A stretch of 64,000 nucleotides of DNA from Mobula hypostoma (Eukaryota). Shown piece after piece: positions 3,594-43,896 of this stretch; positions within the stretch are counted from its first letter, which is position 1; every line of letters begins with the position of its first letter. The DNA lies in contig NC_086097.1 in NCBI RefSeq assembly GCF_963921235.1, positions 119,042,001 to 119,106,000 of the forward strand, in the 5' to 3' direction. Position numbers and translations under genes: made by a program. The notes under the pieces are model-generated. The model saw only the letters and a program-made list of their open reading frames with translations. It was not told where the DNA came from and did not search any database.

Positions 3594-3769
3594 GTATTCT
3601 GGGACAGGTTCCCATAGCTCAGTTCAGGAAACTAAGGAGTGTGAAATCAAAGGGAAGGTGCAATTGTAACATTAATGGTTATTAATGTTTTAGATTAAAG
3701 TTAAGACCACTCAAAAGCAAAGGCACCGGAGTAAATAAAAGCTTACTTGATTAGTTATCTAATGGCTAA

Positions 3770-4165
3770 CCTCATTGGAGTGAAGGAGGATAAAAGGTGA
3801 CTTGATAGTGGTGTACAAGATAATTAGAGGCATAGATTGAGTTATAGCCAGAGACTTTTTCCCAGGGCAGAGATGACTAATGCAAGGGTGCATCGTTTTA
3901 ACATGATTGGAGGAAAGAAGGGGATATCAAAAGTAATTTTTCTTTCACACTGGTGGGTGAGAATGTCCTATCAGGTGTAGTGGGGTAGGCAGATACATTA
4001 GGGACAGTTAAGGAACTCTTAGATGGATACACGGATGATAAGAAATGGAGGGCAATGTTGGAAGGAAGGTTTATATTGATCTGAGAGTAGGTTATATGGT
4101 CAGCACAACATTGCGAGCTGAAGGGCCTGGAATGTATTGTATTGTTCTATGTTCTATATTCTACG
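3770..4165 (+). mobile_element. CR1 LINE 3' end
   Basis: GDLIVVYKIIRGID motif; gaagggcctg...(gttctat)n tail. Confidence 0.75.
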
Positions 4166-7600: not shown

Positions 7601-8818
7601 ATTAAATACTTATGGTATGTTTCTGATTTGTTCTCAGTTTTACTCTTACTCAGTTGCATTTGTCTGTGCTGCCCAGATAAAGCACCCGGAGCTTGGATGC
7701 TATATCCTGACTCCTGTGTTCGGTTGAGTGGAGTTTAGTTTATTGTTGAATTGTGAACTTCCTACTTCACACACAAGGGGAGCAGTACACTGTAACTGGA
7801 TCTTGGGCTTCCTGACAGAAAGACGACTGCCAGTTCAAGTTGGCAGCGACATCTCGGGCTCCATCATGCTGAGCACTGGTGCCCATAAGGTTGTGTGCTC
7901 AGCTCACTGCTGTTCACGCTGCTGACTCATGACTGCACTGCTAGAGACAAACCACATCATCAAGTGGGCTGATGATACGTCAGCAACAAAGGTGAATCAG
8001 CATACAGAAAGGAGATAGAAAGGCTTGTCGAATGGTGTGAGAGTAACTACCTCAGTTCCTACATGAACAAGGCAAAAGAGATGAGTGTGGACTTCAGAAA
8101 GGCTCCGGGCTATCATTCTTCATTGCATATTAATGGCTCTGCCATGCAGAGAGTGAAGAGCACAGATCTCCTCACTGTGCACATAATAGATGATCTAACC
8201 TGGGCCCACAACTCCTCCTCATAGACAAGAAAACACTGCTGCATCTACACTTTCTGAGGAAATTGAGGCATGCATTCCTCCCCACCCCCATTGTAATAAC
8301 TTTCTACAAGAGCACCATCCAGTGCGTGCTGTCTGGCTGCATCATTGTCTGATACAGAAACTTTAAGACATAAGAATACAAGACCCTACTGATCATAGAA
8401 AAAACTGCAAGGGGATCACCAGTCTCCCTGCCCTCTATTTGTGACATTTACCGGGAACATTGTAAACAAAAAGCCTGAAGTATTGTTCAGGATTCCTACA
8501 CCCATCCCATATTCTCCTAGACCCACTACCATCAGGAAGGAGGTACAGGAGGGCATCAGGACTAGGACTGGTTAACAGCTTCTACCCTCAGCCTGCCACC
8601 ACCAAGGTCTCGTCACTAGGATAGCAAGATTTTTTTTGTTCACCCGTATTGCACACTACAGGCATTTTTGAATTATATTTTAGTAATTTTTTTATGGTAA
8701 TATTTTGTTTTATGTGCTGTGTGTGATATATATTCTGTGATGCTACATTTTCCGGAGGAACATTGTTTCGATCGGTTGTATAAGCTTACAGTCAAATGAC
8801 AATAAACTTGACTTGAAT
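4660..8818 (+). mobile_element. Rex1-like LINE relic split by a BEL element
   Basis: RT motifs continue across the insertion (ctctgta|...|ctgtaactggatc); tail aataaacttgacttga. Confidence 0.7.
5331..7789 (+). mobile_element. Internally deleted BEL/Pao LTR retrotransposon
   Basis: LTRs start tgttcagg at 5331 and 7141; purine tract before the 3' LTR; ends in CA; 5-bp TSD ctgta (5326-5330/7790-7794); SCSKICLVKVYP, WDFNPPQSSH and LADQFWKQWKQEY motifs. Confidence 0.88.
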
Positions 8819-8874
8819 TTTGCATAACTGGTGAAAGAAAACTCCATCTCAGCTTGTGAGTAGAACAGGAGGTT

Positions 8875-9155
8875 TGTGTGTTTGAGTATGTGTATGTGTG
8901 TGTCTATGTGTGTGAGTCTGTGTGAGTGTGAGTGCGAGTGTGTGAGTGCAAGTCTGTGCACCAGTGCGAGTGTGAGTGTGTGTCTGTGAGTGGGAGTGTG
9001 TGTGTGTGTGTGTGCGTGAGTATGAGTACGAGTATGTATGTGTGTGTGAGGCTGTGTGAGTGTGAGTGCGAGTGTGTGTGCGTGTGTGCATGTGTGCGGG
9101 CATGTGAGTGCAAGTCTGTGCACCAGTGTGAGTGTGAGTGTGTGTCTGTGAGTGG

Positions 9156-9196
<41 letters not shown>

Positions 9197-9280
9197 AGTG
9201 CAAGTATGTATGTGAGTGTGAGTCTGTGTGAGTGTGAGTACGAGTGCCTGTGTATGTGTGCATGTGTAGGGGGTGTGTAA
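8875..9280. repeat. Compound (TG)n/(TGAGTG)n microsatellite with internal duplication
   Basis: TG-rich tract; block tgtgagtgcaagtctgtgcaccagtg at about 8941 and 9103. Confidence 0.92.
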
Positions 9281-9519
9281 TGACACTGACCCTGTGCAGA
9301 TTTCCCAGCAGAACTGCTGCAGAATTCGAGCAAAACTTGTTCTGTGAAATGGAACCCTATAGCAGAGGGCAGGTGAAAAACTGCCATGATATTTGACCAA
9401 ATAAATGAAAATTTTGCAATTGTTCAGAGTCTCAAAACTTGCAAGCACCACCAATTTAACAATAACATATTTTGCTCATTATTTTGTGGAATTAACTAGC
9501 AAGAATAGCTCCTTGATAT

Positions 9520-15840: not shown

Positions 15841-18242
15841 AAGTGTAGTTCACCATTGTGATTTCACACACACACTGTCTGAGAAAATACAGTATCATAC
15901 AGGCTCCAGTTCAAAAAGTTAGGAGATCCATATTAAAATACAGAGGCAGATGAAAACCTAAACCTTGCCATCATCATATCTCAAGATCGATATGGAATCA
16001 CAAGCTGAACTAATCAATGGCAGAATGTACAAGTCAAGTTTTCTAAGTAAAATATATCCTCTAAAGAAAAAAGCAAGACAGTGACTAAGTGATAGACAAA
16101 TAACAAAAAGCAATCTGATAGCAACTTTGGTGACCCTTTGTTATAGTTGGAGCAAGGTCATACAATATGTTATCAAAAGTGAGTGGGGGTTGGCAGTGAG
16201 ATAGAACAGAATTATTTCTAGATTATAGTAGAACTGATAAAACAGGAATAACAACATCAACATTTCTAACATCAACAGCAGAAATACCAAACATCGGCTC
16301 TTTACAAGAGGAGTAACACACACCAGTCTTCATACTGAGTGCTATGTATTCAAGGGACATATTTTCAGGTGATTGGAAGGAAGCACAGGGAGATGTCAAG
16401 GTAAGCGTTTTTTACACAGAGGATGATGGGTGCATGGAACACACTTCCACTGGTGGTTCTGGAGGTAGACCCATTAAGGACATTTAAGAGTCTCTTTGTC
16501 AGGCCTGTACAGGCAGGTGCCTCCCAGTCTCCACGCAGCTAACAGGAGTCATCGGCCACTTGTTTTCAACTCGTCACCTGCAGCATATTTAAACCCAGCT
16601 CCCACCCACAGCTCTTTGTTCACCCGTTGAATCGGCCAACCTCAATCAGTAATCTTGTTGCCTGTCTTGTCTGATAACTGTTCTCTCTTGTTTTGTGACC
16701 CCTCATGGCTTGTTATTTTGCAGTTTAATAGTAAAGGATCATTTACTGCTAAGCCATCTCTGCTGCTCCACTTTTGGGTTAAACCTACTCTACATTTCCT
16801 GACAGGATGGGTGAACCAATATCTGATGCAGCAAAGTATGCTCACCTAAAGGAAGTTGTCCATCGATAGGAGCACACAATCCCAAAGCAACAGGAAATCA
16901 TTTACCACCTACTCACCATTCTCAACCAACTCACTGTCTCGATACAGCAACCATGTGTCAGTCAGCCTCCTCCCTCTAAGCTCTGGGTTTTAGTGCCTGA
17001 AGGCTTTGATGGATGCCCAATCTGATGCTATAACTTCCTGTCCCTGGGCATCTTACACTTCAAGCTCCAGCCATCTCTGTATTCTGCAGACCAAACCAAG
17101 ATTGGCTTTCTCAACTCGCTCCTGACTGGGCAAGCTGTAACCTGGGCCACCACCAGCTGCAATAAAACCATCATTTGAACCATAGAATCATAGAACCGTA
17201 GAACACCACAGCACAGAAACACAAAACATTTACTGTAAAGATATGCCAGGTTTCTGACTATTCAGGATGTGGAAGAAGGACTGCAGATCGGATACTATGC
17301 CTTGATCAAGTCTCATACTTGGTGCTGAGTCACACCGTGGAATTCAAGACTCTCTCAGCAGAGTGCAACTGGAATGTGAAAGAATCTTATGGAATGACCT
17401 CCCCCCCGCCCCCCCCCCCCCGTCCCGGTCATCAGCCAGAACCCCAGTTCAGTTCCTAGAATCATTTCAGGCTTTAGGACCCTCATCATTAACACCTCCA
17501 GTACCACTGTAGGTAGGGAGAGGTCACCAAGAGTGTGAGAGATGGTGGAGAAACAAAAAGTGTGCTTACTACAGTGCCACTGATCACTCACACACCAAAT
17601 ACCCACTGTGTCTGGCAAGCGACACCGCTAGGCAGAGACAAGGGGCCTTCTATCAGTTGTTGGCATCTCATTCCAGAATTATAGCCTGACTCACTCTCTC
17701 TATCCTCCATACCCCGAATGCTCTACACATTCAGGAAGTTCTAGCGAATTCCACTGCAGCTGGCAGCCTCCTGGACAGGGCACTGTATGTGTGGCTTGGA
17801 CTCCCAACCAAGCCTATCTCTAACTCCACTCCTTCTGCATCATGGCCATTGATGGACGTCCCTTGGGGTCCGGGATGATTGGTGTGTGCACACGGCCAGT
17901 GCACATGAGCATTGGAAAGTACCGGGAGTCCCTCCAATTCCTCCTTATTGACTCACCCAACACTTCTCTTCTCTTGAGTTACACTTTGCTCTCCACTCAT
18001 GAGCCTCACTTCGTCTAGTCTTCCAGTTCACTGCTGAGTTGGGGACCCACCTCCTGGACCTCCTACCTGCACCTTCAGCTGACTTCGCCCCATGAATGCA
18101 TGGAGACAGAGGAAACACTCAGCCTCACCAAACTCTCTTAGGAATACCACGATCTAGCCCTTACCTTCAGTAATAAGGTTGTCATCACCCTACTATCTGC
18201 TACTGTTGACCACCTCCCAGGCACCAATCCTCACTGACATCT

Positions 18243-18287
18243 GTGTTCGTCCATTGTCAACGTTGATGAGGACCTCAACACCATAAT
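18243..18287 (-). mobile_element. 45-bp 3' tip of the 31087-31646 family
   Basis: rc matches 31606-31646; 10-bp TSD actgacatct (18233-18242/18288-18297). Confidence 0.7.
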
Positions 18288-18303
18288 ACTGACATCTAAA
18301 TAA

Positions 18304-22677: not shown

Positions 22678-23138
22678 AGGACAGTTTTGATAAACTGGAG
22701 ATGGACGATAGGGTTGAGCAGACATATTTTACATGAATTGCTCAATTCAATAATGGGAGACTCAAGACAACAAACACAACAGAACAAGCCATGTGCTATC
22801 AAATGTTTGCATTAGAAGCAGTGTGTTGCTCGGGGACAAAATGAAGTTGAGTTTGGATGATAGGAACTCAAGGGAAATCAATGGTAAAGTCTGGGGTTAG
22901 GTTTGAAAGTAGAGAGGTAAATAGATAGCCCCCACACCTCTACTATATTTGGAAGCAAAGGCTTGAATTTGGCAGATATGTTGCTTTAAGTTTGCCAAAA
23001 CCAATCTGAGAACATGGTGTTATTTAAGGGCATTGCAAGAAAAGTTTGGACAGTAATATCCAAATGCTACTGGGTATTCTTAGCCTCTGTATTTGAAACC
23101 CCCTGTGAACAGATGACCCAAAACCAACTTGCTGACCT

Positions 23139-23264
23139 GACGAAGGGTCTCGGCCTGAAACGTCGACTGTACCTCTTCCTAGAGATGCTGCTTGGCCTGC
23201 TGCGTTCACCAGGAACTTTGATGTGTGTTGCTTGAATTTCCAGCATCTACAGAATTCCTGTTGT
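23139..23264 (+). mobile_element. 126-bp PLE 3' tip starting in the hammerhead core
   Basis: gacgaagggtctcggcctgaaacgtcgact...cctgttgt; 10-bp TSD ttgctgacct (23129-23138/23265-23274). Confidence 0.85.
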
Positions 23265-23414
23265 TTGCTGACCTTCACAACTCGTGCAATAAATACTGGT
23301 TTTGATAAAGCTATACAGGTTGTTTTTGTTTATTATTTGATATTTCATATGGTTTCCATATTTAAATGCTGATGTACTATCTGCTCCAATGATTCTTGGC
23401 AAAACAGTTGGGCC

Positions 23415-23645: not shown

Positions 23646-23976
23646 AAGCAATGTAATAACACTGGTGAGATAGCAACTGGGCCATCACTGGTACAAGTGG
23701 ACAACTGCTAAATGAAGTGAGAAGGAACCTGGAAAATGGAAACAGGTACAGCGTCAGGGTGATGGATGGTGCCATTTCTATTTGGAGTTTGGATTCATGC
23801 ATAAATTGTTAAGGCATAGCTCTGTGCATGTGATGCCAACAGAGTAATGAAAGAAAATAAACAACCATGTGTGATTTCAAACAACAGGAATTCTGCAGAT
23901 GCTGGAAATTCAAGCAACACACATCAAAGTTGCTGGTGAACGCAGCAGGCCAAGCAGCATCTATAGGAAGAGGCGC

Positions 23977-24012
23977 AGTCGACGTTTCAGGCCGAGACCC
24001 TTCGTCAGGACT
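23977..24012 (-). ncRNA. Minimal type I hammerhead ribozyme (PLE)
   Basis: rc agtc CTGACGA agggtctcggcct GAAACGTC gact; stem I agtc/gact; palindromic ACGT stem III. Confidence 0.8.
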
Positions 24013-24305
24013 AACTGAAGGAAGAGTGAGTAAGGGATTTGAAAGCTGGAGGGGGAGGGGGAGATGCAAAATGATAGGAGAAGACAGGAGGGGGAGGGAT
24101 AGAGCCGAGAGCTGGACAGGTGATAGGCAAAAGGGGATACGACAGGATCATGGGACAGGAAGTCCGGGAAGAAAGACGGGGGGGGGTTGACCCAGAGGAT
24201 GGGCAAGAGGTATATTCAGAGGGACAGAGGGAGAAAAAGGAGAGTGAGAGGAAGAATGTGTGCATAAAAATGAGTAACAGATGGGGTACGAGGGGGAGGT
24301 GGGGC

Positions 24306-26388
24306 CTAGCGGAAGTTAGAGAAGTCAATGTTCATGCCATCAGGTTGGAGGCTACCCAGACGGAATATAAGGTGTTGTTCCTCCAACCTGAGTGTGGCTT
24401 CATCTTTACAGTAGAGGAGGCCGTGGATAGACATGTCAGAATGGGAATGGGATGTGGAATTAAAATGTGTGGCCACTGGGAGATCCTGCTTTCTCTGGCG
24501 GACAGAGCGTAGATGTTCAGCAAAGCGGTCTCCCAGTCTGCGTCGGGTCTCACCAATATATAAAAGGCCACATCGGGAGCACCGGACGCAGTATATCACC
24601 CCAGTCGACTCACAGGTGAAGTGATGCCTCACCTGGAAGGACTGTCTGGGGCCCTGAATGGTGGTAAGGGAGGAAGTGTAAGGGCATGTGTAGCACTTGT
24701 TCCGCTTACACGGATAAGTGCCAGGAGGGAGATCAGTGGGGAGGGATGGGGGGGACGAATGGACAAGGGAGTTGTGTAGGGAGCGATCCCTGCGGAATGC
24801 AGAGAGAGGGGGGAGGGAAAGATGTGCTTAGTGGTGGGATCCCGTTGGAGGTGGCGGAAGTTACGGAGAATAATATGTTGGACCCGGAGGCTGGTGGGGT
24901 GGTAGGTGAGGACCAGGGGAACCCTATTCCTAGTTGGGTGGTGGGAGGATGGAGTGAGAGCAGATGTACGTGAAATGGGGGAGATGCGTTTAAGAGCAGA
25001 GTTGATAGTGGAGGAGGGGAAGCCCCTTTTTTAAAAAATGAAGACATCTCCCTCGTCCTAGAATGAAAAGCCTCATCCTGAGAGCAGATGCGACGGAGAC
25101 GGAGGAATTGCGAGAAGGGGATGGCGTTTTTGCAAGAGACAGGGTGAGAAGAGGAATAGTCCAGATAGCTGTGAGAGTCAGTAGGCTTATAGTAGACATC
25201 AGTGGATAAGCTGTCTCCAGAGACAGAGACAGAAAGATCTAGAAAGGGGAGGGAGGTGTCGGAAATGGACCAGGTAAACTTGAGGGCAGGGTGAAAGTTG
25301 GAGGCAAAGTTAATAAAGTCAACGAGTTCTGCATGCGTGCAGGAAGCAGCGCCAATGCAGTCGTCGATGTAGCGAAGGAAAAGTGGGGGACAGATACCAG
25401 AATAGGCACGGAACATAGATTGTTCCACAAACCCAACAAAAAGGCAGGCATAGCTAGGACCCATACGGGTGCCCATAGCTACACCTTTAGTTTGGAGGAA
25501 ATGGGAGGAGCAAAAGGAGAAATTATTAAGAGTAAGGACTAATTCTGCTAGACGGAGCAGAGTGGTGGTAGAGGGGAACTGATTAGGTCTGGAATCCAAA
25601 AAGAAGCGTAGAGCTTTGAGACCTTCCTGATGGGGGATGGAAGTATATAGGGACTGGACATCCATGGTGAAAATAAAGCGGTGGGGGCCAGGGAACTTAA
25701 AATCATCGAAAAGTTTAAGAGCGTGAGAAGTGTCACGAACATAGGTCGGAAGGGATTGAACAAGGGGTGATAAAACAGTGTCGAGGTATGCAGAAACGAG
25801 TTCGGTGGGGCAGGAGCAAGCTGAGACAATAGGTCGGCCAGGATAGGCAGGTTTGTGGATCTTGGGTAGGAGGTAGAAACGGGAAGTGCGGGGTGTGGGA
25901 ACTATAAGGTTGGTAGCAGTGGATGGGAGATCCCCTGAGCGGATAAAGTCGTTGATAGTGTGGGAGACAATGGCCTGGTGCTCCTTAGTGGGGTCACGAT
26001 CGAGGGTAAATAAGAGGAGGTATCCGCGAGTTGTCGCTGTGCCTCGGCAAGGTAGAGGTCAGTACGCCAGACTACAACAGCACCCCCCTTATCGGCGGGT
26101 TTAATAGTAAGGTTAGGATTAGTGCAGAGGAAGTGGAGAGCAGAGCGTTCCGAAGGAGTGAGGTTGGAATGGGGACAAGGTGCGGTGAAGTCGAGACGGT
26201 TGATGTCCCGTCGGCAGTTAGCGATAAAGAGATCCAGAGCAGGCAGAAGACCAGAGCGGGGTGTCCATGAAGAAGAGGAGGGTTGAAGACGGGAGAAGGG
26301 GTCATCGGTGGGGGTGGAAGAGTCCTTGCCGAAGAAGTAGGCTCGGAGACGGAGACGGCGGAAGAAAAGTTCCGCATCGTGGCGAACA
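24306..26388 (-). pseudogene. PLE reverse transcriptase + GIY-YIG endonuclease, frameshifted, 5'-truncated
   Basis: KPADKGGAVVV, FYLLPKIHK, GRPIVS, MDVQSLYTSIP, GVAMG, RYIDD, FLDL, GVIYCVRC..CGLLYIGET; three 1-nt deletions (about 26005, 25030, 24810). Confidence 0.93.
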
Positions 26389-26422
26389 ATCGCAAGATCC
26401 TACATCTACGGACTTATTTACC

Positions 26423-28122
26423 CTCGATCGTGACCCCACTAAGGAGCACCAGGCCATTGTCTCCCACACTATCAACGACTTTATCCGCTCAGGGGATCTC
26501 CCATCCACTGCTACCAACCTTATAGTTCCCACACCCCGCACTTCCCGTTTCTACCTCCTACCCAAGATCCACAAACCTGCCTATCCTGGCCGACCTATTG
26601 TCTCAGCTTGCTCCTGCCCCACCGAACTCGTTTCTGCATACCTCGACACTGTTTTATCACCCCTTGTTCAATCCCTTCCGACCTATGTTCGTGACACTTC
26701 TCACGCTCTTAAACTTTTCGATGATTTTAAGTTCCCTGGCCCCCACCGCTTTATTTTCACCATGGATGTCCAGTCCCTATATACTTCCATCCCCCATCAG
26801 GAAGGTCTCAAAGCTCTACGCTTCTTTTTGGATTCCAGACCTAATCAGTTCCCCTCTACCACCACTCTGCTCCGTCTAGCAGAATTAGTCCTTACTCTTA
26901 ATAATTTCTCCTTTTGCTCCTCCCATTTCCTCCAAACTAAAGGTGTAGCTATGGGCACCCGTATGGGTCCTAGCTATGCCTGCCTTTTTGTTGGGTTTGT
27001 GGAACAATCTATGTTCCGTGCCTATTCTGGTATCTGTCCCCCACTTTTCCTTCGCTACATCGACGACTGCATTGGCGCTGCTTCCTGCACGCATGCAGAA
27101 CTCGTTGACTTTATTAACTTTGCCTCCAACTTTCACCCTGCCCTCAAGTTTACCTGGTCCATTTCCGACACCTCCCTCCCCTTTCTAGATCTTTCTGTCT
27201 CTGTCTCTGGAGACAGCTTATCCACTGATGTCTACTATAAGCCTACTGACTCTCACAGCTATCTGGACTATTCCTCTTCTCACCCTGTCTCTTGCAAAAA
27301 CGCCATCCCCTTCTCGCAATTCCTCCGTCTCCGTCGCATCTGCTCTCAGGATGAGGCTTTTCATTCTAGGACGAGGGAGATGTCTTCATTTTTTAAAAAA
27401 GGGGCTTCCCCTCCTCCACTATCAACTCTGCTCTTAAACGCATCTCCCCCATTTCACGTACATCTGCTCTCACTCCATCCTCCCACCACCCAACTAGGAA
27501 TAGGGTTCCCCTGGTCCTCACCTACCACCCCACCAGCCTCCGGGTCCAACATATTATTCTCCGTAACTTCCGCCACCTCCAACGGGATCCCACCACTAAG
27601 CACATCTTTCCCTCCCCCCCTCTCTCTGCATTCCGCAGGGATCGCTCCCTACACAACTCCCTTGTCCATTCGTCCCCCCCATCCCTCCCCACTGATCTCC
27701 CTCCTGGCACTTATCCGTGTAAGCGGAACAAGTGCTACACATGCCCTTACACTTCCTCCCTTACCACCATTCAGGGCCCCAGACAGTCCTTCCAGGTGAG
27801 GCATCACTTCACCTGTGAGTCGACTGGGGTGATATACTGCGTCCGGTGCTCCCGATGTGGCCTTTTATATATTGGTGAGACCCGACGCAGACTGGGAGAC
27901 CGCTTTGCTGAACATCTACGCTCTGTCCGCCAGAGAAAGCAGGATCTCCCAGTGGCCACACATTTTAATTCCACATCCCATTCCCATTCTGACATGTCTA
28001 TCCACGGCCTCCTCTACTGTAAAGATGAAGCCACACTCAGGTTGGAGGAACAACACCTTATATTCCGTCTGGGTAGCCTCCAACCTGATGGCATGAACAT
28101 TGACTTCTCTAACTTCCGCTAG
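26423..28122 (+). pseudogene. PLE reverse transcriptase + GIY-YIG endonuclease, one internal frameshift
   Basis: LDRDPTKEH...RYIDD...FFKK, frameshift at about 27400, then RGFP frame to GIY-YIG...GMNIDFSNFR*. Confidence 0.93.
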
Positions 28123-28414
28123 GCCCCACCTCCCCCTCGTACCCCAGCTGTTACTCATTTTTATGCACACATTCTTCCTCTCACTCTCCTTTTTCTCCCT
28201 CTGTCCCTCTGAATATACCTCTTGCCCATCCTCTGGGTCAACCCCCCCCGTCTTTCTTCCCGGACTTCCTGTCCCATGATCCTGTCGTATCCCCTTTTGC
28301 CTATCACCTGTCCAGCTCTCGGCTCTATCCCTCCCCCTCCTGTCTTCTCCTATCATTTTGCATCTCCCCCTCCCCCTCCAGCTTTCAAATCCCTTACTCA
28401 CTCTTCCTTCAGTT

Positions 28415-28450
28415 AGTCCTGACGAAGGGTCTCGGCCTGAAACGTCGACT
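28415..28450 (+). ncRNA. Minimal type I hammerhead ribozyme (PLE)
   Basis: agtc CTGACGA agggtctcggcct GAAACGTC gact; predicted cleavage 3' of C28446. Confidence 0.8.
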
Positions 28451-28661
28451 GCGCCTCTTCCTATAGATGCTGCTTGGCCTGCTGCGTTCACCAGCAACTT
28501 TGATGTGTGATGTGTGATTTCAACTTTGATGTCTATAGTACTGTATAGTAAGTCAAAGAGTAGGCTATTTGGTTATATTCTGTTAAGCCTTCCAATTAAA
28601 GAAGTTAACTTTCTTTTTTTTAAATATTGATACTTTCTACCCTATCCCCTTCATGTTGTGT

Positions 28662-30388: not shown

Positions 30389-31086
30389 AGGTACAAATTG
30401 AGAACTGGATCAGCTGTAGCATTGTAGATGCTTACTTTTGATTTTTCTGTTATCCAGTTTGTTATTAATTTAGTGAAGTTTAGTAATTTATAAACTTCTC
30501 AAGTATAAGAGCCCCCTAGCATGAAACAAAATACATTCCTTATTAATCAGCTCTAATTTAGGATTAATAGATTCATAGAAACATAGAAAACCTACAGCAC
30601 AATACAGGCCCTTCGGCCCACAGAGCTATGCCGAACATGTCCTTACCTTAGAAATTACTTAAGGTGACTCATAGACCTCTATTTTTCTAAGCTCCATGTA
30701 ACTATCCAGTAGTCTCTTAAAAGACCCTATTGTATCCGCCTCCACCACCGTCACCGGCAGCCCATTCCACGCACTCACCACTCTCTACGTAAAAAACTTA
30801 ACCCAACATCTCCTCTGTACCTACTTCCAAGCACCTTAAAGCTGTGCTGTCTCGTACTAGCCATTCCAGCCCTGGGAAAAAGCCTCTGACTATCCACATG
30901 ATCAATGCCTCTCATCATCTTATACACCTCTATCAGGTCTCCTGTCATCCTCCGTCGCTCCAAGGAGAAAAGGCCAAGTTCACTCAACCTATTCTCATAA
31001 GGTATGCTCCCCAATCCAGGCAACATCCTTGTAAGTCTCCTCTGCACCCTTTCTATGGTTTCCACATCCTTCCTATAGTGAGGCGA

Positions 31087-31279
31087 GGGGTGTTTGGGGT
31101 GTCAGGGAGGGGTAACACCTCTGGTGAGGGAACATGTCGCATCCTTTTCAAGGCGGTTAGTCCACCTTTGGTCCCCACCTGGTACTCAGCTCTTACCTGT
31201 GGCTCCCCGTAGCTGTTTGCATGCGACAGCAGCCACACCCCGGGCAACAGCTTTGACAAGCCGGCTAAACCAGGTGAGG
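31087..31279 (+). ncRNA. HDV-like self-cleaving ribozyme with long J1/2 and L3 insertion
   Basis: P1 GGGGTGT/ACACCCC (31235-31241); P2 31191-31200/31269-31279; P3 GGC/GCC; L3 TCCCCGT; P1.1 GG followed by GCAACA; P4 gctt-tgac-aagc; J4/2 GCTAA. Confidence 0.75.
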
Positions 31280-31646
31280 GTAGCTGACGGATCTCAAACC
31301 CTCGGTGAGATAGTGAGTCGTCTATCCCAGTGTGTGAAGACAGACTCCGGCGGATTGAGCTTACGAGATCAATGGAAGGTCCAACAGTCAAGAAGGCAGT
31401 CTCTGCAAGCATTGTGGAATGTGTAGAGCAGGACTAGACACAGAAGACGTCCTGGTCATCCACTGCGCCTAGTCTCATCTCCAGCCGGCTCAACTCTGTC
31501 TTGCCACTGGATCCAGATGGGAATTGGAAAGAGCGAGTGAGGCTGACACTGCGCAACTCTCCCTCACTTAAATTCAAATTACGCGCTAGTCTTGACACTA
31601 TCAAATGGTGTCGAGGTCCTCATCCATGTCGACGATGGACGAACAC
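31087..31646 (+). mobile_element. Non-coding ribozyme-headed retroelement (RTE-like non-autonomous, inferred)
   Basis: Interrupts CR1; 12-bp TSD atagtgaggcga (31075-31086/31647-31658); no tRNA head and no recognisable protein. Confidence 0.85.
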
Positions 31647-34293
31647 ATAGTGAGGCGACCAGAACTGAGCACAGTACTCCAAGTGGGGTCTGACCAGGGT
31701 CCTATATAGCTGCAACATTACCTCTTGACCTCTAAACTCAACCCAAGATTAATAAAGGCCAATGCACCATATGCCTTCTTAACCATAGAGTCAACCTGCG
31801 CAGCGGCTTTGAGTGTCCTATGGACTCGGACCCTAAGATCCCTCTGATCCTCCACACTGCTAAGAGTCTTACTATTAATGCTATATTCTGCCATCATATT
31901 TGACCTACCAAAATGAAACACTTTACACTTATCTGGGTTGAACTTCATCTGCCATTTCTCATCATATCAATGTCCCGTTTTGCATCCTATCAATGTTCCC
32001 CTGAAATCTCTGACAGCCCTCCACACTATTCATAACGCCCCCAGCCTTTGTGTCATCGGTAAATTTACTAACCCATCCCTTCACTTCTTCATCCAGGTCA
32101 TTTATAAAAATCACAAAGAGTAGGGATCCCAGAACAGATCCCTGAGGCACACCGCTGGTCACCGACCTCCATGCAGAATATGACCCATCTACAACCACTC
32201 TTTGCCTTCTGTGGGCAAGCCAGTTCTGGATCCACAAAGCAATGTCCCCTTGGATCCCATGCCTTCTTACTTTCTCAAAGCCTTTCATGGGGTACCTTAT
32301 CAAATGTCTTGCTGAAATCCATATACACTACAGCGACTGCTCTACCTTCATCAACGTGTTTAGTCACATCCTCAAAAATTTCAATCAGGCTCGTAAAGCA
32401 CGACCTGCCTTTCACAAATTCATGCTGACTATTCCTAATCATATTATCCTTCTCCAAATGTTCATAAATCCTACCTCTCAGGATATGTTCCATCAACTTA
32501 CCAACAACTGAAGTAAGACTCACTGGTCTATAATTTCCTAGGCTATCTCTACTCCCTTTGTTGAATAATGGAACAAGACCTGCAACCCTCCAATCCTCTG
32601 GAACCTCTCCTGTCTCCATTGATGATGCAAAGATCATCGCCAGAGGCTCAGCAGTCTCCTCCCTTGCCTCCCACAGTAGCCTGGGGTATATCTCGTCTGG
32701 TCCCGGTGACTTATCCAACTTCTTGCTTTCCAAAAGCTCCAGCACATCCTCTTTCTTAATATCTACATGCTCAAGCTTTTCAGTCCACTGTAAGTCATCC
32801 CTACAATTGCCAAGATCCTTTTCCATAGTGAATATTGAAGGAAAGTACTCATTAAGTACTTCTGCTTCCTCTTCCGGTTCCCTACACATTTTTCCACTCT
32901 CACACTTGATTGGTCCTATTCTCTCACATCTTATCCTCTTGGTCTTCACATACTTGTAGTATGCCTTGGGGTTTTTGTTAATCCTGTCCACCAAGGCCTT
33001 CTTATGGCCCCTTCTGGCTCTCCTAATTTCTTTCTTAAGCTCCTTCCTGCTTGCCTTATAATCTTCTAGATTTCTATCATTACCTAGTTTGTTGAACCTT
33101 TTGTAAGCTCCCCTCTATCATTACCTAGTTTTTTGAACCTTTCTTAAGCTGAAAATAATTAACAGTATTAGCTGACTAGATGTTACTTGTAAATTTTCCA
33201 TATTCCTATAACCAGCTTAAAATTCTTTCTTTTTGCTTTAATACTTATTGTTTACACTTAGACAAAGTTCCTTGTTTCTCTCTGGATTGATTCTGTTGGT
33301 ACTCTGCACTCACTCTGCCTCCAATTTAGACCACAAGATTATAAGACATAGGAGCAGAATTATTCCATTTGGCCCATCAAGTGCTCTACTATTCAATCAT
33401 GAATTATTTATTTTCCTTCCCAGCCCCATTCTCCTGCCTTCTCCCCATAACCTTTGAATCCCTTCCTAATCAAGAACCTATCAACCTCTGTTTTAAATAC
33501 ACCCAACTTGGCCTCCACAGTCGCCTGTGGCATGATTTCCACTGATTCATTACTGGTTTGGTTCATTTCTTCAAAGATGTTGTGCCACGTGTAAATATGG
33601 AGTTGGCTCTGGGTTTTGTTCAGTTTTCAGCCTGGTGATAACTTAGATCCAAGTTCAATGTACAGGGGCAACAAAATACTGCATTCTGGTATCAGCTAGG
33701 GGAGCAGATGATAACTGGTTGGGGATCTGGAAGAACTTGCAGACTGAGTTTTTGTAACATTTTGTAGCAACAAGTTAATATATATTTGGACATATACATG
33801 TTTGGGCAAAAACTAGCAGGTTGAAAAGTCTGCATTTGATTTTTGAAATTCTGTTCCATGGTAATTCGAAAATATATAACTGCTCCTTCATGATTGTTAC
33901 ATAAAGATGCTGGAATTCACAACCCGACAGCTCCACAGAAATGCCAACACCAGAAGGACAGCAGAAAACCAAGTGAGCTTCTCACCTTCAACTCCTCAAG
34001 GGCAGCTTGGGAAGGGCAATAGATACCAGTCACCGAATGATAGACAGGTCATACAAGTAATAAAAGCAAACAGCTATGCTCACAAGATTGCAATTCATAT
34101 ATCTCATAGGAGGAATTATGTAAATAGATATACAAGCAAGTGACAGAAATGTGTAAGAGCAATAAGAGATAATAATGGTGGAGTTTAACTTTGCTAATAC
34201 TAGTTGGGATTGCCTCAGTACAAGGAGCTCAAATGTGGCAGATTTTCGAGAAAGGTTTTGAAACAATGTGTAAAGAGGTGTTATATGTAAAGT

Positions 34294-41936: not shown

Positions 41937-42339
41937 ATATTCAGACTTCCAAAACATGTCACTTCACACTTTTCCAGATTGAAACCCATCTGCAACTTCT
42001 CATCAAAGTTGCTGGTGAATGCAGCAGGCCAGGCAGCATCTCTAGGAAGAGATACAGTCGACGTTTCAGGCCGAGACCCTACATCAGGACTAACTGAAGG
42101 AAGAGTTAGTAAGAGATTTGAAAGTGGGAGACGGAGGGGGAGATCCAAAATGATAGGAGAAGACAGGAGGGGGAGGGATGGAGCCAAGAGCTGGACAGGT
42201 GATTGGCAAAGGGGATATGAGAGGGTCATGGGACAGGAGGCCCAGGGAGAAGGAAAAAGGGGAGGGGGGAAAAATCCAGAGGATGGGCAAGGCGTATAGT
42301 CAGAGGGACAGAGTTCCTCCAACCCGAGACGAACTGATT

Positions 42340-42649
42340 TCCAAAAAGGCATAAAGTTAAAGATGACACGTTTCTTTAATATTTTAAGGAAGAAAACTTT
42401 TTTTTGTTTCGATCTTTTACAGTTTCAAAATAACAAAAAAGGAAAAGAGCCTGAAGCAAAAGTTTGGAATCCCTGCATGGTCAGTAGTTAGTAACACCCC
42501 CTTTGGCAAGTATCACAGCTTGTAAATGCTTTTTATAGCTAGCTAAGAGTCTTTCAGTTCTTGTTTGGGGGATTTTTGTCCATTCTTCCTTGCAAAAGGC
42601 TTCTAGTTCTGTGAGATTCTTGGGCCGTCTTGCATGCACTGCTCTTTTG
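42340..42649 (-). mobile_element. Tc1 transposase C-terminus and 3' flank, no termini
   Basis: KRAVHARRPKNLTELEAFCKEEWTKIP...LQAVILAKGGVTNY*. Confidence 0.85.
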
Positions 42650-43131
42650 CGGGGATCAGTGTTGAGAATGCTTCTTTTTAATGTTTCCATTCTGATGTCC
42701 CATTCTGACATGTCTATCCACGGCCTCCTCTACTGTAAAGATGAAGCCACACTCAAGTTGGAGGAACAACACCTTATATTCCGTCTGGGTAGCCTCCAAC
42801 CTGATGGCATGAACATTGACTTCTCTAACTTCCGCTAATGCCCCACCTCCCCCTCATACCCCATCCGTTATTTATTTTTATACACACATTCTTTCTCTCA
42901 CTCTCCTTTTTCTCCCTCTGTCCCCCTGACTATACTTCTTGCCCATCCTCTGAGTTCCCTCCCGCTTGTCTTTCTCCCTGGGCCTCCTGTCCCATGATCC
43001 TTTCATATCCCTTTTGCCAATCACCTGTCGAGCTCTTGGCTCCATCCCTCCCCTTCCTGTCTTCTCCTATCATTTTGGATCTCCCCCTCCCCCTCCCACT
43101 TTCAAATCTCTTACTAACTCTTCCTTCAGTT

Positions 43132-43167
43132 AGTCCTGACGAAGGTTCTCAGCCTGAAACGTCGACT
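43132..43167 (+). ncRNA. Minimal hammerhead ribozyme motif (PLE)
   Basis: agtc CTGACGA aggttctcagcct GAAACGTC gact; mirror copy at 42056-42091 has a mutated core. Confidence 0.7.
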
Positions 43168-43896
43168 GTACCTCTTCCTAGAGATGCTGCCTGGCCTGCT
43201 GCGTTCACCAGCAACTTTGATGTGTGTTGCTTGAATTTCCAGCATCTGCAGAATTCCTGTTGTTTGCCACTTCACAACTCAGTTCCGCATCCTATCAATT
43301 TCCTATGGTAACCTACAACATCCTTCTAGACTATTCAGAACATCACCAACCTTTGAGTGATCTTCAAACTTGCTAGCCCATCCGTCCACTTCCCCAACCA
43401 AGTTATTTATAAAATATCACAAAGAGCAGGGGTACCAGAACAGATCCCTGAAGAACACTACTGATCTCTGAACTCCAGGCAGAATATGCTGGATCTACTA
43501 CGACCCTCTTCTCCTGTGGACAAGCCAATTCTGAATCCACGCAGCCAAGTTTCCCTGGAACACATGCGTCCTGACTACCTGTGTGTGAGTAGCATGTACT
43601 GTAGCTGTACGTTCATCCCCCTTGTACCTGGTACTTTACGCATTAAAATAGACACATTTCAACCTATTCACTGACTGCAGTTATGCACTTTCTACAGCTT
43701 ATCTTTCTTCACTCAGCATACTACCATTATAGCAACTGCTGCATCCTCTGCCTTATAACTCTAGTTGCTATCCCCCTGTCCAACCAGTTTAATCTCTCTC
43801 CTACAACTCCAGCAAACATATCTGCAATAATATTTGCCCCTCTTGAGTAAGGTGTCAGGTTGTTACCTTTTGTAGAGATCACACCTTCCCCAGAAG

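Follow-up and report, generated by a model that had tools for sequence, protein, structure and literature searches.

A bipartite non-autonomous RTE element in Mobula hypostoma with a predicted HDV-like ribozyme at its 5' end and a candidate helix joining its two parts

The 560-bp insert at positions 31087-31646 of the 64,000-nt stretch of Mobula hypostoma DNA analyzed here (the window) is a bipartite non-autonomous RTE element. It consists of the first ~517 nt of the 5'UTR of a parent RTE (94% identity) fused to the parent's last ~45 nt, which belong to the 3'UTR, and the two parts join inside an 11-bp hairpin. The identification is based on ends shared with the parent copies L117, L116 and L118 and on a UTR match to the element RTE-11_PSi. 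The best explanation of the whole, which we regard as probable, is a bipartite RTE that would be copied in trans, with an HDV-like ribozyme at its 5' end and an end-to-end helix acting as a composite signal. The element type has already been published; the present case comes from a vertebrate, and its parent can be traced.

A CR1-type ORF on the minus strand hosts the insert, which is flanked by an exact 12-bp target site duplication (TSD), ATAGTGAGGCGA. The left copy (31075-31086) comes from the host CR1 ORF and the right copy lies at 31647-31658; TSD and insert features are given on the plus strand. The host ORF is split at its SPHY codons (...FWSPHY|RKD...), and the duplicated bases are those codons. 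A preliminary description of this DNA had reported the insert, its perfect TSD and the lack of a tRNA head or recognizable protein, and all of these coordinates were verified. No tRNA gene was found in the insert, A and B boxes were absent by regular expressions, and six-frame translation gave no portion of the parent ORF. The insert does not have the tRNA, 5S or 7SL head and A/B boxes of a Pol III SINE. A 45-bp 3' tip of the same family, also described earlier as having its own TSD, was confirmed as a 5'-truncated copy on the minus strand (18243-18287), ending in the loop of the junction helix, between exact 10-bp repeats (18233-18242 and 18288-18297). The full-length window copy is decayed, with 4.7% non-CpG divergence from the consensus vs. 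0.2-2.3% in 29 other copies, which are best matches and for that reason biased toward the consensus. Its P4 carries an A-C mismatch at 31249. Elsewhere in the window, a 2.1-kb inverted duplication (23907-28520; 99.7% identical) contains RT-like ORFs of Penelope-like appearance, and further copies of its end occur at 23136-23283 and 42001-43280. CA-rich low-complexity repeats at 8743-9475 give rise to spurious His/Thr-rich ORFs.

To the family of the insert (family A) we assign roughly 2,000 copies. A search of the 3.48-Gb assembly gave 5230 first-look candidates, 40 of which were scored; exact degenerate patterns detected 1890 ribozyme cores and 2418 3' tips genome-wide, with 0 matches in reversed controls. 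Sixty loci (L001-L060) were examined, of which 57 were distinct. The match started exactly at the P1 G (consensus 1) in 46 of the 57 and at positions 2-5 in the other 11, so that the proposed check, that full-length copies start at the P1 G, gave agreement to within 4 nt at every locus. The upstream flanks were unrelated apart from an excess of T at -1 (37/57 loci vs. 17-25 at -2 to -10). This T was rejected as element sequence because it falls mostly inside the TSDs where these are clear; it may reflect a second-strand nick or priming preference. Half of the sampled loci had been chosen by the 5' 220 nt alone, and 27 of these 30 continued unbroken to the tip region, with no long element among them. 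Tails were CAA or CCAA repeats. In 24 of 30 loci, a simple search detected exact repeats of 7-13 bp on both sides of the element; these and the 12-bp TSD of the window copy lie within the 7-15 bp reported for RTE (PMC6007223). At G000:C5:123817687-124174516, at least 10 matches of one junction variant recur at intervals of 20-55 kb; a tandem segmental array is a more probable source than independent insertions. An exact-pattern scan of metagenome contigs gave 0 matches, and the viral contigs contained no relative.

The preliminary description had proposed that the element borrows the RT of a LINE, probably an RTE, and had suggested a search for an autonomous LINE sharing both ends. That search led to a decayed RTE of the same genome that matches both ends and from which the element derives. 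A pattern that required the end of the 5' part and disallowed the tip behind it gave 136 matches, of which 20 were fetched: 16 were short-element variants and four ran into a shared longer sequence, three of which were read further. L117 begins at the P1 G and is 94.3% identical to consensus 1-521; past this point it continues with ~330 nt more UTR and then an APE endonuclease ORF. The Pfam domains Exo_endo_phos (PF03372) and RVT_1 (PF00078) were identified in two of the four L116 segments scanned. A C2H2-like motif, the stop codon and then the element's tip (consensus 518-563) were present in 14/14 ORF-end loci, chosen by the C-terminal part of the ORF, and in L118, the continuation of L116. 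The two parent ends were read from separate copies (L117 lacks the 3' end; L116 and L118 are contiguous with a rearranged 5' end), and all parent copies read were broken or rearranged. Full-length protein homologues of the parent ORF are ~1060 aa, and the closest named relative by identity is from a shark (73%). The parent probably belongs to the RTE clade, as judged from UTR identity with named Repbase RTEs and from domain order; a single ORF with APE and RT domains, as in that clade, is indicated by the Pfam domains and the full-length homologues, the genomic copies read being broken. The element itself combines an RTE 5' part with the 3'UTR and microsatellite tail of the same RTE and has neither an ORF nor a small-RNA head, as is the case for bipartite RTEs.

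Several side observations concern RTE copies of this genome and their relatives. A candidate intact parent lies near C1:28.40 Mb. In L115 (1-546) and L116 (1-96), reverse-oriented ORF sequence is joined to the 5'UTR, which resembles inversion at insertion. The ~330 nt of 5'UTR missing from the short element (L117 580-930) is 67-86% conserved in dozens of relatives (many of L133-L212), and this stretch before the parent ORF is possibly a translation element. A DUF6451 search for the parent gave 20 loci; these belong to different RTE families, carry different tails and do not match the element. Among loci L061-L080 there are three or more further RTE families, whose tails are of GAA or CTAA type, and L069 lies within a 1018-aa open frame.

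As far as the available text of Kojima (2018; PMC5786205) and its supplement goes, the element resembles MAR4_MD, RTESINE1/2, WALLSI3 and RTE-N2_Lch, which likewise have an RTE 5' part and a 3' tip but no ORF and no small-RNA head. MAR4_MD is similar in length and homologous in the printed region. The family described here is new and has a different parent. That text links bipartite RTE elements with intact 5' ends to predicted ribozymes and leaves unknown why few clades form them; the accessible portion describes neither a ribozyme structure nor pairing between the two parts. RTE-11_PSi and RTE-2_CPB are listed among the RTE LINEs in the supplement, and the comparison is restricted to the printed stretch, with the ribozyme region outside it. 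Over that stretch, 370-519 of the turtle RTE-11_PSi shares 139 of 150 bases with the family consensus, as counted by eye, and is roughly collinear with it from the 5' end. The 93% identity to a turtle RTE is suggestive of horizontal transfer, which we do not claim because even distant relatives show 70-83% conservation of this region. Five motifs sought in the AviRTE supplements gave no relevant match that would indicate identity with AviRTE.

The first ~195 nt of the element are predicted to fold into an HDV-like nested double pseudoknot (P1, P1.1, P2, P3 and P4) in which P2 is long, J1/2 is structured and L3 contains an additional hairpin; the fold is supported by descriptor search and covariation. 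The P1 5' strand (31087-31093) pairs with 31235-31241, and cleavage is predicted just 5' of 31087, the family 5' end according to copy starts and folding. The J1/2 (P1.2-like) domain spans 31097-31187, with an outer helix of 31097-31106 with 31178-31187 in minimum-energy folds of five family representatives. The 5' strands of P2 (up to 12 pairs) and P3 (31201-31203) occupy 31189-31203 and are followed by the L3 core (31204-31211) with the P1.1 C residues 31205-31206. Alignment, folding and the descriptor place the P3 3' strand (31232-31234), the P1 3' strand and the P1.1 GG (31242-31243) in 31232-31243, P4 (31248-31252 with 31259-31263) and J4/2 (31264-31268, with the putative catalytic C31265) in 31248-31268, and the P2 3' strand at 31269-31281. 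The pairings named in the preliminary description (P1, P2 as 31191-31200/31269-31279, the GG and J4/2 with C31265) were found where it had put them. Its statement that the HDV elements follow in order was right in that all segments are present, but it missed a 20-nt hairpin insertion in L3: a descriptor with L3 of up to 9 nt found no match in the element, and the fold found by the descriptor has a P1 of 7 bp, a P2 of 12 bp and an L3 of 28 nt. An Rfam scan of 30500-32300 (E up to 10) returned three chance-level matches and no HDV family.

A chance origin of the fold is argued against by dinucleotide shuffles of the element, since the descriptor matched only 4 of 3000, none with P2 of at least 10 bp and none with P1 within the first 3 nt. 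The remainder of the window gave two weak descriptor matches on the minus strand, and a strict-descriptor match in L149 looks like chance. The strict descriptor was intact in only 31 of the 57 sampled copies. In an alignment of eight related sequences from about four lineages, 95.3% of 191 cells were base paired, with two-sided changes at one pair of P2 and three pairs of P4; L134 and L161 show two-sided changes in P1. The covariation check proposed earlier thus gave a positive result for P1, P2 and P4 across families. The J1/2 closing helix folded in 5/5 representatives, all of which also keep the L3 core, the GG and GCTAA, so that J4/2 with the putative catalytic C is conserved as had been anticipated. 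The second GGGGTGT (31096-31102) was set aside as an alternative P1 because it is predicted within the J1/2 helix and L117, L134 and L161 have a single P1 candidate. It is quite likely that the mobile ancestor carried an active ribozyme.

Loose ends of contigs from four sequencing runs revealed a sister family B, with 208 pattern matches and 14 copies read (L101-L114, e.g., G000:C18:163696587-163697330). Family B is ~520 nt long, older and RTE-derived; it shares the 5' start and the ribozyme with family A and differs in body and tip. Its ribozyme keeps the fold, with P4 and L3 altered. In L113 (G000:C80:9153182-9153920) a family A copy lies in reverse inside a family B copy, indicating that family A was active later than that B copy.

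The L3 of canonical HDV-like ribozymes is short (7-8 nt). Here 20 extra nt, a 5-bp hairpin (31212-31216 with 31226-31230, 9-nt loop) plus one base, are predicted between the L3 core and the P3 3' strand (31212-31231). All five base pairs are kept in all five representatives. The variation consists of two one-sided changes, both from U-A to U-G wobbles, and no two-sided change; the support for this hairpin is weaker for that reason. We found 80 metagenomic relatives by protein similarity and scanned 62 and 73 upstream regions with descriptors, in addition to a model search. Two relatives (L134 and L161) have the long L3. Nine have an L3 of 7-8 nt: L137, L150, L162, L168, L171, L185, L187, L200 and, weakly, L179; the first eight (L137 at 10-88) show canonical HDV-like motifs upstream of RTE ORFs. 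The remaining relatives gave no ribozyme match in the upstream regions scanned or in the model search. Lacking the hairpin, the close homologue L137 provides a natural control. An 8-bp match between J1/2 and the loop of the L3 hairpin in families A and B would form a third pseudoknot, which we do not claim because by eye the match was not seen in L134 and was doubtful in L161.

The insertion could also be accommodated by a different fold, in which P3 closes with its first three bases to leave an L3 of 8 nt and the other 20 nt fall between P3 and P1. Canonical L137 has GCT right after its 7-nt L3, where the insertion starts, and the insertion may have arisen by duplication of that strand. This fold has a nested energy of -19.1 vs. 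-24.2 kcal/mol for the hairpin model and leaves unexplained the invariant second GCC and the 5/5 hairpin pairs of every representative; we consider it quite improbable. A further possibility is that an internal RNA polymerase II promoter sets the 5' end and that the HDV-like fold, which the L3 insertion would have slowed or made inactive, is retained for a role in translation or protein binding. L3 is described as part of the active site in the accessible text of PMC4908430, and LINE 5' ends can drive transcription according to that of PMC5786205. Against a promoter, the first 7 nt covary with the P1 3' strand, and the L3 core, P1.1 and J4/2 are conserved beside the insertion in separate lineages; the long P2 and structured J1/2 also resemble those of the fast drz-Agam-2 type as given in the former source. 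The promoter explanation appears unlikely, and an active ribozyme with an L3 hairpin is preferred.

The predicted fold can be compared with known ribozymes as far as the accessible parts of the sources allow. HDV-like ribozymes of RTE elements were described by Ruminski (2011), as cited in PMC6765202 and PMC5786205, and in drz-Agam-2-1 a 12-bp P2 and a structured J1/2 make the ribozyme fast (PMC4908430). The element shares with these the double pseudoknot, a cut at the first P1 base (predicted here), the 12-bp P2 and the structured P1.2 domain, and differs from them in the 20 extra nt of the L3 hairpin and in having no Rfam match. The SIDE ribozymes of Drosophila R2 self-cleave in vitro (Eickbush and Eickbush, 2012; PMC3414825). 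R2 SIDEs are likewise short and internally deleted, and they combine an HDV-like ribozyme at the 5' end with the 3' end of their parent; cleavage was seen in R2 SIDEs, and in the present element it is predicted. R2 SIDEs are site-specific in 28S rDNA and R2/R1-driven, whereas the present element is dispersed in ~2,000 copies and would be RTE-driven. In Perere-3, of the RTE clade, 5' twister T-variants set the 5' end of a dispersed RTE and the TSDs adjoin the cut site (PMC8501958), but twister is a ribozyme class different from the HDV-like fold here.

We also analyzed the junction of the two parts. The deletion joins an 11-nt arm from the last part of the parent 5'UTR included (31591-31601) to its exact complement at the parent stop codon (31605-31615), the first base of the 3' arm being the last of the stop codon. 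The tip from the parent 3'UTR (31605-31646) contains a terminal hairpin and the start of the CAA-type tail. The arms are an estimated ~3.5 kb apart in the parent, from UTR and ORF lengths. The short-element junction was seen in 1755 of the 2418 tips and the stop context of the parent in 113. Loop lengths of 1-10 nt among the 100 junctions listed and a parent-type base in several tips suggest more than one deletion event, both arms having been kept each time.

The pairing was evaluated in relatives by a helix test anchored at a conserved RTE 5'UTR motif (31536-31571; a possible hairpin of 31536-31542 with 31562-31568, followed by TAA). From 41 metagenomic loci with a full-length ORF match, six with less than 450 nt upstream and five with no stop in reach were removed and the parent of our own genome was added, giving 31; removal of two without the 5'UTR anchor and one with a short 3' end, and merging of eight near-duplicates, left 20 representatives. 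(A first test with a narrow anchor had nine representatives, with the own-genome element merged with L135, and was rerun with the wider anchor.) The 30-nt window behind the anchor was folded against the own or a swapped stop region, and these windows were fixed after the first results had been seen. Own arms averaged -17.7 kcal/mol vs. -10.2 for swapped arms, a difference reached in 0 of 200,000 permutations. With windows shifted by 50-150 nt the differences were at most 1.3 kcal/mol (p 0.02-0.73). Perfect helices of at least 7 bp were present in 12/20 own vs. 10/380 swapped pairs, and a direct-repeat control showed no excess. Own pairing was the best against all cross pairs in 6/20 only, and four of the 20 (L135, L155, L161 and L177) showed no clear helix at the anchored window; L135 pairs at another anchor. 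In the printed sequences of the PMC5786205 supplement we found by eye perfect 9-bp matches in RTE-3_AMi (282-290 with 3855-3863) and RTE-1_PSi (177-185 with 3726-3734). The two helices differ by a compensatory change and are independent of the choice of window. In the same source, a junction hairpin was also recognized by eye in MAR4_MD. It is very likely that the helix forms in RTE RNA.

We give an even chance to a requirement of the helix in recognition, as against a role in translation or stability. A serious competitor, to which we attach somewhat lower probability, holds that the helix is real but serves translation or RNA stability of the parent, and that short elements break there when the reverse transcriptase jumps across the stem base. 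Many families have their 3' arm at the stop codon, the 45-bp window copy stops in the helix loop as a polymerase stall predicts (one case), and sister family B has no obvious junction hairpin by eye. However, RTE-derived SINEs without a ribozyme retain the 5'UTR stretch up to the arm as well as the 3' tip in the WALLSI alignments, which suggests a need in trans and counts against this alternative.

In the mechanism that we prefer, the element's transcript would arise by read-through, and the ribozyme would cut before G1, releasing the RNA from the read-through transcript and setting the exact 5' end. The RTE protein would then copy the element in trans by target-primed reverse transcription, as the TSDs, CAA tails and shared ends suggest. 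In the parent RNA, the complementary 11-nt 5'UTR segment would pair with the stop-codon region and leave the remaining UTR and the entire ORF in a loop; the short element would correspond to the parent minus this loop. The helix most likely places the conserved 5'UTR domain beside the 3' hairpin, and the two could form a composite signal for the RTE protein.

A full-text literature search, with the founding RTE/HDV-ribozyme papers, Repbase reports and patents outside its scope, gave no report of a hairpin in L3 of HDV-like ribozymes or of a 5'UTR-stop helix in RTE, which is weak evidence that these two structural traits have not been described. All parts may hold together: RTE RNAs would be looped by a conserved, covarying 5'UTR-stop helix that gives the RTE protein a recognition element in two parts and explains the repeated origin of bipartite elements and SINE tails from RTEs, one lineage would carry an active HDV-like ribozyme with an L3 hairpin, and both would be undescribed. 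We put this full combination forward tentatively and consider it rather doubtful as a whole.

If the L3 insertion is functional, the range of the HDV-like fold is broader, and ribozymes of this kind escape standard searches. The helix bears on template design for RTE-based gene insertion, in which both UTRs flank the payload and, according to the available part of PMC13708176, UTRs have been improved by empirical screening. The end-to-end helix may explain why RTEs give rise to bipartite short elements, and it offers a testable answer to the question raised in the accessible text of PMC5786205, why few LINE clades yield internally deleted derivatives.
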